Shown piece by piece: positions 949 through 61,974 of a stretch of DNA of 64,000 bases. Made by a program: the position numbers and the translations under genes. Source of the DNA: a virus (taxonomy: Duplodnaviria; Caudoviricetes). The stretch lies in IMG/VR virus record IMGVR_UViG_3300020576_004352, positions 1-64,000 of that record; one strand, given 5' to 3'. The notes beneath the pieces are model-generated. The model saw only the letters and a program-made list of their open reading frames with translations. It was not told the origin of the DNA and searched no databases. The first letter of the stretch is position 1. Each line of letters starts with the position of its first letter.

Positions 949-1437
949 TGATTGAATACTATGCGCAAGCCACTCCGCACAATGTGCTGGCTGAGGGTGA
1001 GCCGTTTTTTACCATGATTGACGGGCACCGGGTAAAGCTGGTTTTGCAATATCGCTATGACCGGCTTCCGCAGGAAACTCCCGCAGTGGTGCATTATGCG
1101 AGTGGCAAGATTTTGGCCAGTGTCGCCATGATGCACGCAAAAAAGCTGGCCTATGGTGCCATGCGTGGCCGGAAAGCCCCTTCTGATCGTGATCGTCAAA
1201 GCCTTCAACTGGAAAAAGAATGTGAGCCGGGCGGACTGCACCATGCGCCCGCAAGACCACAAGTGGTACAACGCGGATATGTTCCCTGCGATGCTCAACA
1301 GGATGTACTTCCAGCTTCGCGGCGGTGAGTATGCCACGTGGTGCAGGCTGGATAAACTTCCGCCCGGTGTTACCGTCACACAGGGCAAGAGCTTGCTGGC
1401 GACTGTGACCATTGAGCTGCCTGCGGACTTCAAGTGA
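948..1437 (+). pseudogene. two overlapping out-of-frame ORFs (948..1328, 1153..1437), possibly halves of two genes joined near 1195
   Basis: First ORF looks protein-like up to SDRDR; the second frame looks protein-like from ~1195 to its stop and has no good RBS or start. Confidence 0.35.
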
Positions 1438-1469
1438 ACCGGGGTTCAAAAAAGATGCACGAATGGCAC

Positions 1470-1498
1470 TTGACAAATAAAATGTTATAGGCTAGGGT
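1470..1498 (+). promoter_or_regulatory. sigma70-type promoter, conserved-spacer family
   Basis: TTGACA-17-TAGGGT, spacer AATAAAATGTTATAGGC; RBS CTGGAGAC before ATG 1530. Confidence 0.8.
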
Positions 1499-1529
1499 GC
1501 AGAGGTTGGAAACTAACTGGAGACGTACA

Positions 1530-1709
1530 ATGGCTAAAGCAGACCTTACTTTTACATGGACACCTGATAAAGCAACCGAAACCACGGTGAAGATCGTGGA
1601 AGGATTTGAGAACTATCCGGCATTGGATCGGCTTGACTTCCTTACCGACTGTCGGCGTGTAATTGAAAAACTTTACAGGCAGGCTTCAAAAGATTTCAGC
1701 GGGGAGTAG
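1530..1709 (+). CDS. small early hypothetical protein
   Basis: ATG after GGAG RBS, directly behind promoter. Confidence 0.65.
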   Translation: MAKADLTFTWTPDKATETTVKIVEGFENYPALDRLDFLTDCRRVIEKLYRQASKDFSGE

Positions 1710-1715
1710 GTCGTT

Positions 1716-1886
1716 ATGCGCCGTGATGCAAGTTTTGTGATTGTGCGCAAGGCCGATGGCCAAGCAATCATGGAAACCTTCTCTGCCCGCGTGGCGGAGC
1801 GTGTGAACAAGGACAAGTATGAGGCGGTGCCCATCTTGGACTACCTTGAGCGGCTTAATGCCAAGATTAAAGCGGAGGCTGCATGA
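1716..1886 (+). CDS. small hypothetical protein, 56 aa (MRRDASFVIVRKADG...)
   Basis: Read by eye, below track cutoff; GGGAG RBS; ATGA overlap with next ORF. Confidence 0.6.
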   Translation: MRRDASFVIVRKADGQAIMETFSARVAERVNKDKYEAVPILDYLERLNAKIKAEAA

Positions 1887-2023
1887 TGTTCAAAGTGCAT
1901 GTCGGCTATACGCCTAAGGGCCGTGACCGCTGGAAGCGTTTTGCGACCTTTGAAGCTGCGCAGCGGCTATGTTCTGAGGTGTTCAACAAGACAGGTGTTG
2001 TCCTTACCATCATTGGAGGCTGA
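1883..2023 (+). CDS. small hypothetical protein, 46 aa
   Basis: GGAGG RBS, ATGA coupling; read by eye. Confidence 0.5.
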   Translation: MMFKVHVGYTPKGRDRWKRFATFEAAQRLCSEVFNKTGVVLTIIGG

Positions 2024-2024
2024 T

Positions 2025-59197: not shown

Positions 59198-59270
59198 GGG
59201 GAGGTAGTTAAACGGATATAACGTAGGCCGGAAAGCCTAGTTGCGGGTTCAAACCCCGCCCGCCCCAACA
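59198..59270 (+). ncRNA. tRNA-like RNA with 6-nt anticodon loop, no CCA
   Basis: Acceptor GGGGAGG/CCGCCCC, D-arm GTTA/TAAC, TAGGC-CGGAAA-GCCTA, T-arm GCGGG-TTCAAAC-CCCGC. Confidence 0.75.
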
Positions 59271-59296
59271 CCCAACGCATACAAGGGAGACTGGAC

Positions 59297-59653
59297 ATGG
59301 GTACTCAAGTTATAACGATTGGTACGGACGGCAGCCTGCAAGGCCTGATGCGCAAGAAGGGCGAGGGCGTTGACCTCCGGGAGTTTGGCCCAGCACATAT
59401 CGAGCGCACTTCACTGATCCAGTTTGATGAGGGTAAGCAGAAGTTCTACGTGGAGTTTATTGCCGGGCCGCTGGCCGGGAAGCTGCTGACCTATCCATTA
59501 TTTGCGGCCTGCACACGCCTCCCGGTACGGTTCAACAACAGCGACCACGTCATGCGATTTGAAACCTATGAGGAGGCAGTAAAGTGTGAGATCATGGTGC
59601 TTGATGGTTATCGCGCCAGACCGCTCTGGGCATCGGCTGTGGAGGTTCTCTGA
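59297..59653 (+). CDS. hypothetical protein of the AAA/DUF1257/DUF2997 operon
   Basis: GGAGACT RBS; I.I..DG...GL, I.R.S.I.FDE. Confidence 0.7.
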   Translation: MGTQVITIGTDGSLQGLMRKKGEGVDLREFGPAHIERTSLIQFDEGKQKFYVEFIAGPLAGKLLTYPLFAACTRLPVRFNNSDHVMRFETYEEAVKCEIMVLDGYRARPLWASAVEVL

Positions 59654-60028
59654 ATGTCTGCGACTGTTCTGAAGTTCAAGCCGCGTGAGGAAGCCCCGCT
59701 CAGCCCGGAGGTCATACAAAGCCGCATGGAACGCCTGCTTTACGGGCCGCTGCAAGCGAGGCTTCCCACATCAGCGTACCGGGTAATGTCCTATATCTTG
59801 GAGAATGGGGCCTTCATAGGTAACCCCCAGCCCCGGATGAAGTTCAAGGACATGGCAGCCGGGAAGAAGATCAAAGTCACACAGGTAATTTGGGCCATTG
59901 ACCATCTGCATAAGGAGAGCCTGCTTGCGTTTACGGACGTAACGGAAGATCAATTCAGGGTTCAAACCTCTCTGGGTTTGATGCAGCGATATGTGGATCG
60001 CACCGCCAGACCGGGCCGCGTTGACTAA
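59654..60028 (+). CDS. hypothetical protein, possible winged helix
   Basis: GGAGG RBS. Confidence 0.6.
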   Translation: MSATVLKFKPREEAPLSPEVIQSRMERLLYGPLQARLPTSAYRVMSYILENGAFIGNPQPRMKFKDMAAGKKIKVTQVIWAIDHLHKESLLAFTDVTEDQFRVQTSLGLMQRYVDRTARPGRVD

Positions 60029-60055
60029 TCCAGACAATCGACTATAAAGACGAAA

Positions 60056-60090
60056 CCGCCAAGCTGCTTTCGGAGGAGCTTGGCGGCTTC
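60056..60090 (+). terminator. hairpin, possible terminator or attenuator before the initiator
   Basis: CCGCCAAGCT/AGCTTGGCGG stem with weak U tract. Confidence 0.5.
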
Positions 60091-60109
60091 TAACCACTAA
60101 CGCAAGGAC

Positions 60110-61417
60110 ATGCGAATGGCCAAAAGTTATCTACCCGAAAATAATAACGCTGTAAAGCACCTACCTATGCAACAGAAGATGGAGGCGCTTGAGATTTTAT
60201 ACCAGAAAATACATCCGCACCTGAGCCCTGCCGAGAGCATGGTTCTCAACTTCATTTATATGCGGACGTATAAGTGGGGCAAGGTCAGCGAACACATTAG
60301 TTTCAAGCACTTCCTAGAGGGCATATTCACCCATGAGGGAGAGTCGCTGCTAGCTGGGCTTAATATGTCCCGGAGAACACTGGGCACGTGCCTGAACTCC
60401 CTGAAGGACAAAGGGGTGATTTTCGCCACAGAGCACAAGAAAAATAACGGGCAGGACGATATGTCCGAATACCGGATGAACATGGAGTGGACTTCTATGC
60501 TGAAAATGCCGAAAAGACTAAAAACTAGCGGAAATCCTGAGAAAAATGGGGGGTGCAAATCTTGCCAAGGGGGGGTGCAAAATTTGCCAGAGGGGGGTGC
60601 AAAATTTGCACCCCTTAAGTACATAAATAAAATACATAAAGATAAACAAGTAGAGCGACAGGCGGAGCCTGCGCATACCGAAGAGGATATTTTATCAGCG
60701 ATAAGCACTGCCAAAGGCAGAGCGACGGCTTCCCGGTTAAAGAAGGTTGAGCGTGCCCGGAGTAATCCGCAGAGCGTGGCCAGCCTTTTCACGGTTTGGG
60801 AACACGCCTTGCGGACACACTTCCCGGATTACCCGGTGGTGCAGCCTTGGACACGCAAGCAGCTGGGCCAGATGGCGGACTTCCGCACCGCCTTCGGCAA
60901 GAGCAACACGGGGGCAAGCGTCGCGGCTTTTGTGGAGTTTTGTGTCCAGCATTGGCGGCGCATAGGCGTGCTGCAATTCGCAAATCTGAAAAATGGAAGT
61001 TTCCCACTTTACCCGGATATTGGTTTCCTGATGGGCATGAAGCGGGGCTTTCTCACCAGCTTCGCGGATAATGATTTTGCAGGCCGCACCGCCAAGTTTA
61101 CCGAGGCGGATCGCAAGACCGCCAAGCTGCTCCGGCAAGGGTACACGCAGGCCGAGGCCGAGCGGGCCGTGCAGCAGGATACGGGCAGCAGGCGGGCTCT
61201 TGACCAGCAGCTGGCAGAGAATGACCGCGCCCGGCTCGATAACATTGCCCTGAAGCGAAAGCTGGAGGATGCCAAGCGTGATAATCGCGACCTGCGGGAG
61301 CTGGCTGCGGTGGGGGCCAAGGAGCGGGTACTCGCCAAATTTGAGAAGGCAAAGATGAAAATAAATATCCGGGACGGGGACGCAGAGCTTCAGCCTTTGC
61401 CCGGCTGGTGCGAATAA
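60110..61417 (+). CDS. replication initiator (lambda O-like N-terminal wHTH)
   Basis: V..FIY.RTY.W.K....IS...F..G, SRRT....L..L..KG; contains iterons; upstream of loader and helicase. Confidence 0.75.
   Translation: MRMAKSYLPENNNAVKHLPMQQKMEALEILYQKIHPHLSPAESMVLNFIYMRTYKWGKVSEHISFKHFLEGIFTHEGESLLAGLNMSRRTLGTCLNSLKDKGVIFATEHKKNNGQDDMSEYRMNMEWTSMLKMPKRLKTSGNPEKNGGCKSCQGGVQNLPEGGAKFAPLKYINKIHKDKQVERQAEPAHTEEDILSAISTAKGRATASRLKKVERARSNPQSVASLFTVWEHALRTHFPDYPVVQPWTRKQLGQMADFRTAFGKSNTGASVAAFVEFCVQHWRRIGVLQFANLKNGSFPLYPDIGFLMGMKRGFLTSFADNDFAGRTAKFTEADRKTAKLLRQGYTQAEAERAVQQDTGSRRALDQQLAENDRARLDNIALKRKLEDAKRDNRDLRELAAVGAKERVLAKFEKAKMKINIRDGDAELQPLPGWCE
60548..60650 (+). promoter_or_regulatory. putative replication origin: three 22-bp-period iterons plus AT-rich tract
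   Basis: GGGGGGTGCAAA(TC/AT)TTGC at 60548, 60570, 60592; then TACATAAATAAAATACATAAAGATAAAC. Confidence 0.8.
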
Positions 61418-61974
61418 TGACTGTCGAGCAGAAGAAGGACGAGATCGCCCGCAGCATGGTGAGCGCAGGGATAGGGAACTTTTATCACGGGGTTACGTTA
61501 GCGTCCTTCGGCTCAGCAGGTGAGCAGGTGAAATCGCGCATGAATGAACCGGGGTTCAAATCAGCGGTACTATCAGGCAGCGGATTTAACATACTCAGTA
61601 CCGATCTCAAGGAATGCACCTTCCCATTTGTGGTGGCGCGGGCCTTACGTCTCGCCCGCATTGATGCGCGAGCTGTCCGCCTGATGCCCCTGCTGCGGTT
61701 TATCGAGGCCGGGCATACGGAAGACTTTGACGATATCCGGTTTGCTGAGTTTAACCGTGCACAGGCGTTGGTCATTCCGGGATTTTTTGAGCAGCTTGAT
61801 GAGAAACCTTTCACGCGCAGAGAGCTGTACCGAATTGAAAACTTCCTGACCGAGATGATGGATAACGGGTTCTCGGTCAGCGTGCAGCACTACGGCAGCC
61901 TTGACAGACAGGACTGGTTTTCGCCCCGCCTTATTGCCCGGCTGCGAGAGTGTAATATGGAGGTCACGATATGA
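61417..61974 (+). CDS. degenerate DnaC/IstB-like helicase loader
   Basis: TAATG-coupled; GIG..Y...TL.SF N-terminus and PRL.ARL.E C-terminus, but no GKT. Confidence 0.5.
   Translation: MTVEQKKDEIARSMVSAGIGNFYHGVTLASFGSAGEQVKSRMNEPGFKSAVLSGSGFNILSTDLKECTFPFVVARALRLARIDARAVRLMPLLRFIEAGHTEDFDDIRFAEFNRAQALVIPGFFEQLDEKPFTRRELYRIENFLTEMMDNGFSVSVQHYGSLDRQDWFSPRLIARLRECNMEVTI

Follow-up and report, generated by a model that had tools for sequence, protein, structure and literature searches.

A dispersed, evenly spaced 14-bp palindrome in a siphovirus genome and its drifting counterparts in related phages of Proteobacteria

Several described systems place copies of one DNA word at many positions of a replicon, and they are the closest points of comparison for the element treated here, a 14-bp palindrome of the pattern TGAACCNNGGTTCA (TGAACC-NN-GGTTCA) that recurs along the genome of a tailed phage (Duplodnaviria; Caudoviricetes). 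The sites of CRP at class I promoters and of P2 Ogr are symmetric and lie upstream of the −35 box on one helix face, being few and tied to specific promoters. Cluster O mycobacteriophages reportedly carry dispersed, exact 17-bp dyad repeats near the gene boundaries of a siphovirus genome, and on the plasmid RK2 about a dozen copies of the OB operator are found round the replicon, some of them promoter-proximal. OB is a palindromic operator with some promoter-distal copies and is read by a global regulatory protein, KorB (PMC11790492). The stoperators of Cluster A mycobacteriophages are short sites spread across the phage genome, with a word that co-evolves among relatives (PMC6550527, PMC9283540). 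The RacA protein of Bacillus subtilis occupies about 25 regions through ram, an often clustered 14-mer palindrome (TGACGCCGGCGTCA) whose essential TG/CA ends are contacted by Arg19 and each half of which is read by a MerR-type winged helix (PMC4914108). The palindrome studied here was analysed in the first 64 kb (64,000 nucleotides, hereafter the window) of the 87,856-bp IMG/VR record IMGVR_UViG_3300020576_004352, which is estimated to be 81% complete, as well as in the whole record and in related phages. From comparison of these sequences, we propose, at what we consider an even probability, that a two-fold-symmetric protein, most probably encoded by the phage, docks on double-stranded DNA at its copies.

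A preliminary description of the window had reported 16 copies with 12 invariant bases, and all of them, with every arm base intact, were recovered. Dinucleotide-preserving shuffles of the window (n=100) gave 0 copies; the window contains no one-mismatch variant of the palindrome, and its single two-mismatch match is unrelated. The whole record holds 22 copies, roughly one per 4 kb, versus a mean of 0.33 and a maximum of 3 in shuffles that preserve proteins and codon usage (n=300), and the enrichment thus withstood the codon-preserving control that had been proposed for it. Of the 16 window copies, 13 have CC or GG at the centre and the other three TC, TC and CA, again as described. Across the record, the asymmetric centres read on the + strand are CC (13 copies) and GG (6 copies), and since both are present the word is used in both orientations. 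No fixed flanking element (e.g., a −10 box) is common to all copies beyond A/T at ±1–2; the −10-like hexamers found directly upstream of some copies were set aside as a probable by-product of these A/T flanks. The palindrome array is real and strongly selected; its mechanism and its binder, as set out below, are what we infer.

A scan of viral contigs for the exact 14-mer returned mostly single chance matches, and through it we found two sequences of interest, G008 (see below) and G007, a 21-kb fragment that is syntenic with the window at ∼65–70% nucleotide identity and contains six palindrome copies. Three of the G007 copies lie at the same places as window copies 26158, 32455, and 39580, with 36/36 arm bases identical; the flanks at these sites are just 48–61% identical, and the centre dinucleotide differs every time. 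One of the three (39580..39593, centre TC) is located inside a gpI-like tail gene (39360–40010), where both phages read L-N-L-G-S with the same codons save the central one, and where the G007 copy keeps every arm base. The palindromes are under selection as DNA.

More distant relatives (capsid proteins 42–53% identical) do not have the TGAACC word, and each carries its own 14-bp palindrome of the same build. Eleven relatives, cultured and uncultured, harbor about 16–52 copies each, mostly of the form TGCAA-N4-TTGCA, and the cultured carriers include phages DLP5, JP1, L338C, HJ05, and LV6. The word is TGCAAT-NN-ATTGCA in Stenotrophomonas phage DLP5 (27–31 copies) and in the genome G006 (21 copies), TGCAAC-NN-GTTGCA in Rhizobium phage L338C (47 copies), TGCAACYRGTTGCA in Aeromonas phage HJ05 (16 copies), TGCAAACRTTTGCA in Agrobacterium phage JP1 (33 copies), and GCAAT-NN-ATTGC in Vibrio phage LV6 (16 copies), and the genomes G002, G003, and G005 use GCACTTAAGTGC (15–19 copies), GCAAY-NN-RTTGC (39 copies), and TGCAAGTGGTTGCA (25 copies), respectively. 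TGACAT-NN-ATGTCA and TGCAAC-SS-GTTGCA occur in further uncultured members. Beside its 47 copies with a 2-bp centre, L338C (L178–L183) has 12 extra copies with a 1-bp centre (TGCAAC-N-GTTGCA), so that the spacing of the half-sites is not absolutely fixed. Vibrio phage VHS1 (L184–L188) has no full palindrome and carries the half word TGCAATTAA 23 times, which looks like a one-sided or degenerate form of the array. A complete 100-kb relative (G415, the record behind L199) encodes both candidate binder proteins discussed below; its 21-kb locus contains TAGTA-N-TACTA four times and no TGCAA word, and this may be another dialect. Most of the other loci that we fetched and that also contain a UvsX-like gene, largely from AT-rich phages of other groups, show no such array.

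The positions of the sites are kept in the clade while the word itself changes. A syntenic site upstream of the prohead protease gene is found in 8 of the 11 clade genomes, this record included, and another between the RuvC-like gene and the gene that follows it in 9–10 of the 11; in several clade genomes, TerL and the AAA ATPase gene are likewise followed by a site. Even spacing is seen in four genomes (this record, G003, G006, and DLP5), with a coefficient of variation (CV) of the spacing of 0.48–0.54 versus ∼0.95 for random positions (P≤0.002). The best explanation, although taken as a whole it stands for us at no better than even, is that a large clade of siphoviruses of Proteobacteria, with genomes of roughly 80–110 kb, has the array and its binding protein from a common ancestor, and that the TGAACC word is derived.

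The record is that of a siphovirus encoding TerL, a portal protein with a LAGLIDADG insert, a MuF-like protein, a prohead protease, and an HK97-type capsid, followed in the inventory by a tail module (tape measure, lambda-like tail-tip genes) and by replication genes (AAA ATPase, DnaB, PolA-type polymerase, primase, SF2 helicase, UvsX-like recombinase, Cas4-like exonuclease, and RuvC-like resolvase). All confidently called genes lie on the + strand. No match was obtained when parts of the window or of G008 were compared at the nucleotide level with the phage, plasmid, and E. coli collections. In this setting, a gene boundary is no more than 60 nt away for 16 of the 22 sites, versus 20.6% of random positions (P = 2e-7), and the spacing has a CV of 0.53 versus 0.93 for random positions (P = 0.002), the smallest gap being 1,635 bp. 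At five sites of the record, the TGA of the word provides the upstream gene with its stop codon. Three of these overlaps lie in the window, where they had already been noticed: 1435..1448 (centre GG; stop of the open reading frame (ORF) 1153–1437), 16542..16555 (centre GG; stop of ORF 16209–16544, with the next ATG 3 nt downstream), and 57724..57737 (centre CC; stop of the AAA ATPase gene 56041–57726, after which relatives also have a site). Other copies close to the ends or starts of genes are those at 4919..4932 (centre GG; last codons of ORF 4701–4958, 22 nt before an ATG at 4955), 14907..14920 (centre CC; end of ORF 14698–14937), and 18383..18396 (centre CC; 27 nt before the stop of ORF 17860–18423). 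The copy at 9670..9683 (centre TC) sits before a gene starting at 9694 and directly behind a strong terminator-like hairpin (9625–9655), which consists of a 13-bp stem and a T-run. Intergenic copies include 11914..11927 (centre CC), between the end of a ParB-methyltransferase gene at 11878 and the start of a TerS-like gene at 11959; 26158..26171 (centre GG), 8 nt before the ATG of the prohead protease gene at 26180, with a G007 copy at the same place; and 55077..55090 (centre GG), which is followed by a T-run, as is one other copy, at record position 86294. The copy at 32455..32468 (centre CA), again matched in place by G007, lies within the ORF 32319–32519. About half of the copies had been said to lie inside coding sequences; intragenic copies do exist, and those deep in genes are five in the window, namely the gpI-like copy at 39580 and those at 21049..21062 (centre CC; ORF 20619–21224), 41789..41802 (centre CC; deep in the gpJ-like gene 40014–44510), 52621..52634 (centre CC; ORF 52470–53072), and 61545..61558 (centre GG; ORF 61408–61974). 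The stretch 41803–52620, which holds a reported foreign insertion of 4 kb, has none, in line with the earlier claim that the insertion is free of the motif.

Part of the array is tied to promoters. Nine sigma-70-type promoters of the record form a paralogous family built on one conserved spacer (gcacTTGACAaa..tgtta..TAGGGT or TATATT), at 1470, 14951, 15854, 55111, and 57779 of the window and at 66895, 76123, 82241, and 86327 of the record; several of them then carry a common ribosome-site motif, CTGGAGAC. At six of the nine, a palindrome lies 9–41 nt upstream of the −35 box. In the window, these are the + strand promoters TTGACA-17-TAGGGT at 1470..1498 (21 nt behind the copy at 1435), TTGACC-17-TAGGGT at 14951..14979 (30 nt behind 14907), TTGACT-17-TATATA at 55111..55139 (20 nt behind 55077, and a paralogue of the promoters at record 82241 and 86327), and TTGACA-17-TAGGGT at 57779..57807 (41 nt behind 57724), and the promoter at record 76123 follows the site at record 76100 after 9 nt. 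From the palindrome centre to the first base of the −35 box, the six distances are 16.5, 26.5, 27.5, 28.5, 37.5, and 48.5 bp, which modulo 10.5 equal 5.5–7.5 (Rayleigh R 0.93, P 0.001). With this common phase, all six sites are on the same side of the helix. Relative to the presumed transcription start, assumed to be ∼7 nt after the −10 box, they lie at about −52, −63, −73, and −84. Over 11 genomes, a promoter-like −35 box begins 7–9 nt after the palindrome at 25 of 296 sites, for an expectation of 0.69 and a maximum of 5 in 2,000 simulations; the gap is clearest in L338C, which has the conserved promoter TTGACAAAGGATCGGTTC...TTAGATT and, at 59697/59719, one example of a palindrome-bearing promoter. 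A typical copy in JP1 or G002 occupies the short interval that separates a stop codon from the ribosome-binding site of the next gene, which is also the cheapest place for a 14-bp word in a packed genome.

These observations bear on the kind of molecule that reads the word. Folded as RNA, the word would give a hairpin of just −4.4 to −5.5 kcal/mol, and in G003, with most genes on a single strand, the two orientations of the asymmetric word GCAATCAGTTGC are represented by 11 and 10 copies. A weak hairpin, use in both orientations, and the lack of conserved flanks together point to a two-fold-symmetric protein on duplex DNA and not to a structured RNA. The suggestion of the preliminary description that a dimeric protein acts along the whole chromosome agrees with this behavior of the sites; the roles that it named, segregation, compaction, and packaging, are possible and have no direct support. 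Its wording that the copies would be such sites "rather than ordinary operators" was only half right, a subset of the sites being phased upstream of sigma-70-type promoters. Since this subset is fixed and helically phased, the protein probably contacts RNA polymerase, and we infer for this minority of sites the geometry of an upstream regulator touching the polymerase. At promoter-proximal sites (centre at about −52 or, in this phage, one to three helical turns further upstream), the bound dimer would touch RNA polymerase in a class-I-type manner, and at the other junction sites and the intragenic sites the bound protein could mark, insulate, or block transcription units genome-wide. More tentatively, and with a probability well short of one half, we suggest a clade-wide control lattice, in which one conserved protein (the best candidate being the 406-aa protein described below, with its partition-like helical domain and basic tail) would read an array of drifting words and couple to host RNA polymerase from fixed helical positions, the array possibly serving both gene control and chromosome organisation.

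Among the described systems, RacA/ram shares with this array the build of its word. A 14-bp word with TG and CA ends was found here and in relatives (TGCAA-N4-TTGCA, TGACAT-NN-ATGTCA, and similar), the 22 sites of this record compare with the ∼25 regions of RacA, and the clade encodes a MerR/RacA-like candidate; yet RacA is a cellular sporulation protein that anchors the chromosome at the pole, whereas the phage array is evenly spaced genome-wide and partly phased to promoters. With stoperators, the array has in common a dispersed word that co-evolves among relatives. It differs from them in being palindromic and free of orientation, with a subset upstream of promoters on a fixed helical face, whereas stoperators are 13-bp asymmetric words that keep one orientation relative to transcription and at which a monomeric immunity repressor blocks elongation; no such asymmetric one-orientation word was found here, nor was a stoperator-type immunity repressor identified among the annotated proteins. 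The comparison with KorB/OB extends to a dispersed palindrome with promoter-proximal and distal copies, and stops at the binder: KorB is a ParB-family CTP-dependent clamp, whereas ParB_N proteins are not universal in the clade, that of this phage is fused to a methyltransferase, and a ParB-family binder was not found. As analogies, the stoperator and parS/KorB comparisons hold. The Cluster O repeats differ in word, host phylum, and phage lineage, and we know of no promoter phasing or clade-wide dialects for them. One helical face relative to the promoter, as at class-I-type sites, is seen here as well; compared with CRP class I and P2 Ogr, most array copies are away from a recognisable promoter, and activation is here putative. 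A search of the literature for the motif strings found no paper that gives these words as a phage feature, and the paper on phage DLP3 mentions neither palindromes or repeats nor promoters. In the literature searched, there is no description of the array for this clade, the principle being known elsewhere (stoperators, KorB, RacA).

Two proteins encoded outside the window are candidate binders. Our preference, with a likelihood somewhat under one half, goes to a predicted 406-aa protein (record 76195–77415). It was found in all 21 genomes and loci checked, with JP1_074 and DLP5 gp066 among its homologues, and the site that is best conserved in the clade (here record 76100) immediately precedes its gene. 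An acidic N-terminus and a Lys/Ala/Pro-rich basic tract accompany a conserved helical domain, the strongest motifs of which (YRKAxYLIxIY and GWTKLKEL) are nearly constant where the word is TGCAA and deviate in this phage (YRSA) and in JP1, both with deviant words. Searches of a domain atlas gave leads only for this domain (DUF3102, a plasmid-partition N-terminal domain, and DUF1016/ParB-HTH clusters; scores 0.86–0.91, TM 0.53–0.68). The second candidate, a more doubtful one, is a putative MerR/RacA-like winged-helix protein of 184 aa (record 72129–72683), encoded between the SF2 helicase and UvsX genes and with a homologue in 10 of the 11 genomes (JP1_076 and DLP5 gp059 in two cultured members). 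Its AF2 model (pLDDT 84) gave local Foldseek matches to BldC (prob 0.98) and to the RacA–DNA complex (prob 0.85), and the profile of its family hit the DNA-binding domains of CarH (E 2e-6) and RacA (E 9e-5), among other MerR proteins. In the profile alignment, the RacA arginine that precedes the conserved tryptophan of the recognition helix pairs with a basic residue in the phage family; this arginine is taken to be Arg19, with an offset of three tag residues. Viral contigs yielded no close relatives of the winged-helix protein. The rest of the probability is divided between another phage protein and a host factor. A ParB-like domain at 10559, put forward as one candidate in the preliminary description, is not supported: the gene (10559–11878) encodes a ParB_N domain fused to an N6/N4 DNA methyltransferase and, at E<1e-4, is without a homologue in five array-bearing relatives. 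Free-standing ParB_N proteins are encoded upstream of the terminase genes in many clade members and were not found in the array-bearing G003, LV6, and VHS1, so that a common binder of this type was rejected on phyletic grounds. Also discarded were the "transcriptional repressor" gp081 of DLP5, which carries a DnaJ-type zinc motif and lacks a counterpart in this phage, and a 113-aa protein next to UvsX, with a low-confidence model and no helix-turn-helix (HTH).

Several results weigh against docking sites for a conserved phage protein acting through promoters. None of the candidate proteins covaries cleanly with the word. Promoter-adjacent sites make up 27% of the sites in this phage and ∼8% of all clade sites, no promoter link was seen in JP1, G002, and, for the most part, DLP5, and six sites are the basis of the phasing test. 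The 406-aa protein has no match in sequence searches of Pfam and PDB, and L192 combines a standard 406-aa helix with the word TGACAT. As for the winged-helix protein, its recognition helix is highly variable among genomes that all use TGCAA, HJ05 and L338C have a common word and different recognition helices, and no homologue was found in G006 or in G414 (93% complete, with arrays). Two further observations lie outside the clade. The complete, unrelated 33.7-kb phage G008 (L130, L131) has the same word three times (GTGAACCSSGGTTCAC at 15387, 18009, and 29109) and no homologue of the 406-aa protein. A scan of bacterial genomes with the capsid protein turned up distant prophages in Reyranella and nothing else. 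These Reyranella genomes (G011, G012, and G013, behind L156, L159, and L158, respectively) carry 11–25 copies of TGCAAT-YR-ATTGCA per genome, as single copies on many contigs; by a rough estimate these counts are far above chance, which hints at a cellular regulon with the same word.

The last two observations also feed the idea that the phages recruit a host transcription factor or nucleoid protein, each dialect matching the host's own protein. Besides the dispersed Reyranella copies, this idea draws on the host sigma-70 type of the promoters adjoining the sites, on the resemblance of the words to the PurR box, and on G008, whose shared word and similar tail-associated protein hint at a common host. 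By BLASTP, G008 and this phage have no common protein at E<1e-3; a more sensitive search found its tail-associated protein weakly similar to window 44529–44981 (E 4e-8), and it encodes an 88-aa HTH protein (16529–16795), between two of its sites, with a recognition helix resembling that of the winged-helix candidate. The upstream site of HrpS, TGCAA-N4-TTGCA, likewise resembles the array words (PMC8657755). Yet the dialects ignore host relatedness, Rhizobium phage L338C and Aeromonas phage HJ05 using TGCAAC and Agrobacterium phage JP1 TGCAAA; TGAACC-NN-GGTTCA occurs 0–2 times per genome in 401 sampled Pseudomonadota genomes; and array-wide identity of 12 bases is unusual for host regulons. We regard a host reader as improbable. 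A word read by a phage methyltransferase, nickase, or endonuclease, with the sites marking modification or nicking, is more improbable still, even though this phage encodes the ParB_N-methyltransferase fusion at 10559, a second methyltransferase lies at 49783–51969 inside the reported foreign insertion, and site-specific nicks are known in phage DNA, e.g., in T5. The phyletic gaps that removed the fusion and the ParB_N proteins as common binders count equally against them as enzymes of this kind, and an enriched, evenly spaced, symmetric 14-bp word is unlike ordinary methyltransferase targets.

The positions of the sites themselves could be read in two other ways. Their location at gene junctions, often in the gap from a stop codon to the following ribosome-binding site, and the T-runs after the copies at 55077 and record 86294 would suit a transcribed hairpin that terminates, processes, or stabilises mRNA, but the hairpins are weak (stems of 5–6 bp), their formation does not need exact identity of 12 bases, asymmetric versions are equally frequent in both orientations, and the exact −35 spacing and the copies deep in genes make no sense for an RNA. 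Neither the stable hairpin nor the strand-specific use of repetitive extragenic palindromic (REP) elements and intrinsic terminators was found, and an RNA element is the explanation in which we place the least belief. Dispersed centromere-like or condensation sites, as in RacA/ram, ParB/parS, or the centromeres of plasmid prophages, would instead tether, compact, or partition the genome or a plasmid prophage, with secondary effects on transcription; this we judge unlikely, if less so than a host reader. Such a role would fit the even genome-wide spacing that includes intragenic copies, the RacA-like candidate and the ram word with its equal 14-bp build and TG/CA ends, and, in the 406-aa protein, the weak plasmid-partition N-terminal leads and the Lys/Ala/Pro-rich basic tract. 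It would also fit the reports on DLP5 and DLP3, according to which both are temperate, DLP5 was isolated as a phagemid, and the same state is suggested for DLP3 (PMC5834331, PMC7326821). On the other side, a purely architectural role would not predict the fixed 7–9-bp gap that separates sites from the −35 box in several genomes, nor the helical phasing of this phage; no ParA-type partner was seen among the annotated proteins of this phage (not every ORF being scanned), and the annotated genes of the record show no sign of lysogeny.

Some further features of the record were seen in passing. The portal gene (21959–24778; 939 aa) has a LAGLIDADG_3 domain at residues 667–714, which suggests an intein or homing endonuclease. 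The DNA polymerase (window 63287–64000 plus L152:1–2886; 1,199 aa) contains an HNH-endonuclease-like stretch at about residues 438–604 of the part scanned, ahead of the polymerase domain, and this may be an intein or an inserted endonuclease. ARAGORN predicts an unusually long, 92-nt tRNA-Val(CAC) at window 4366–4457 and a tRNA-like element with an undefined anticodon at 59197–59269.

If docking of one conserved protein on the array is the right reading, this clade would run its whole genome through a single protein and a single, evenly spaced DNA word. Cultured members infect Stenotrophomonas, Agrobacterium, Rhizobium, Aeromonas, and Vibrio, and some are considered for therapy, so that the question is directly testable in the laboratory, with the promoter phasing as a concrete and falsifiable handle on the mechanism. 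For annotation, the array marks gene junctions, and probably the boundaries of transcription units, and identifies members of the clade. The combination of a drifting word and conserved positions would be a natural experiment, in which a binder and dozens of its sites change specificity together.

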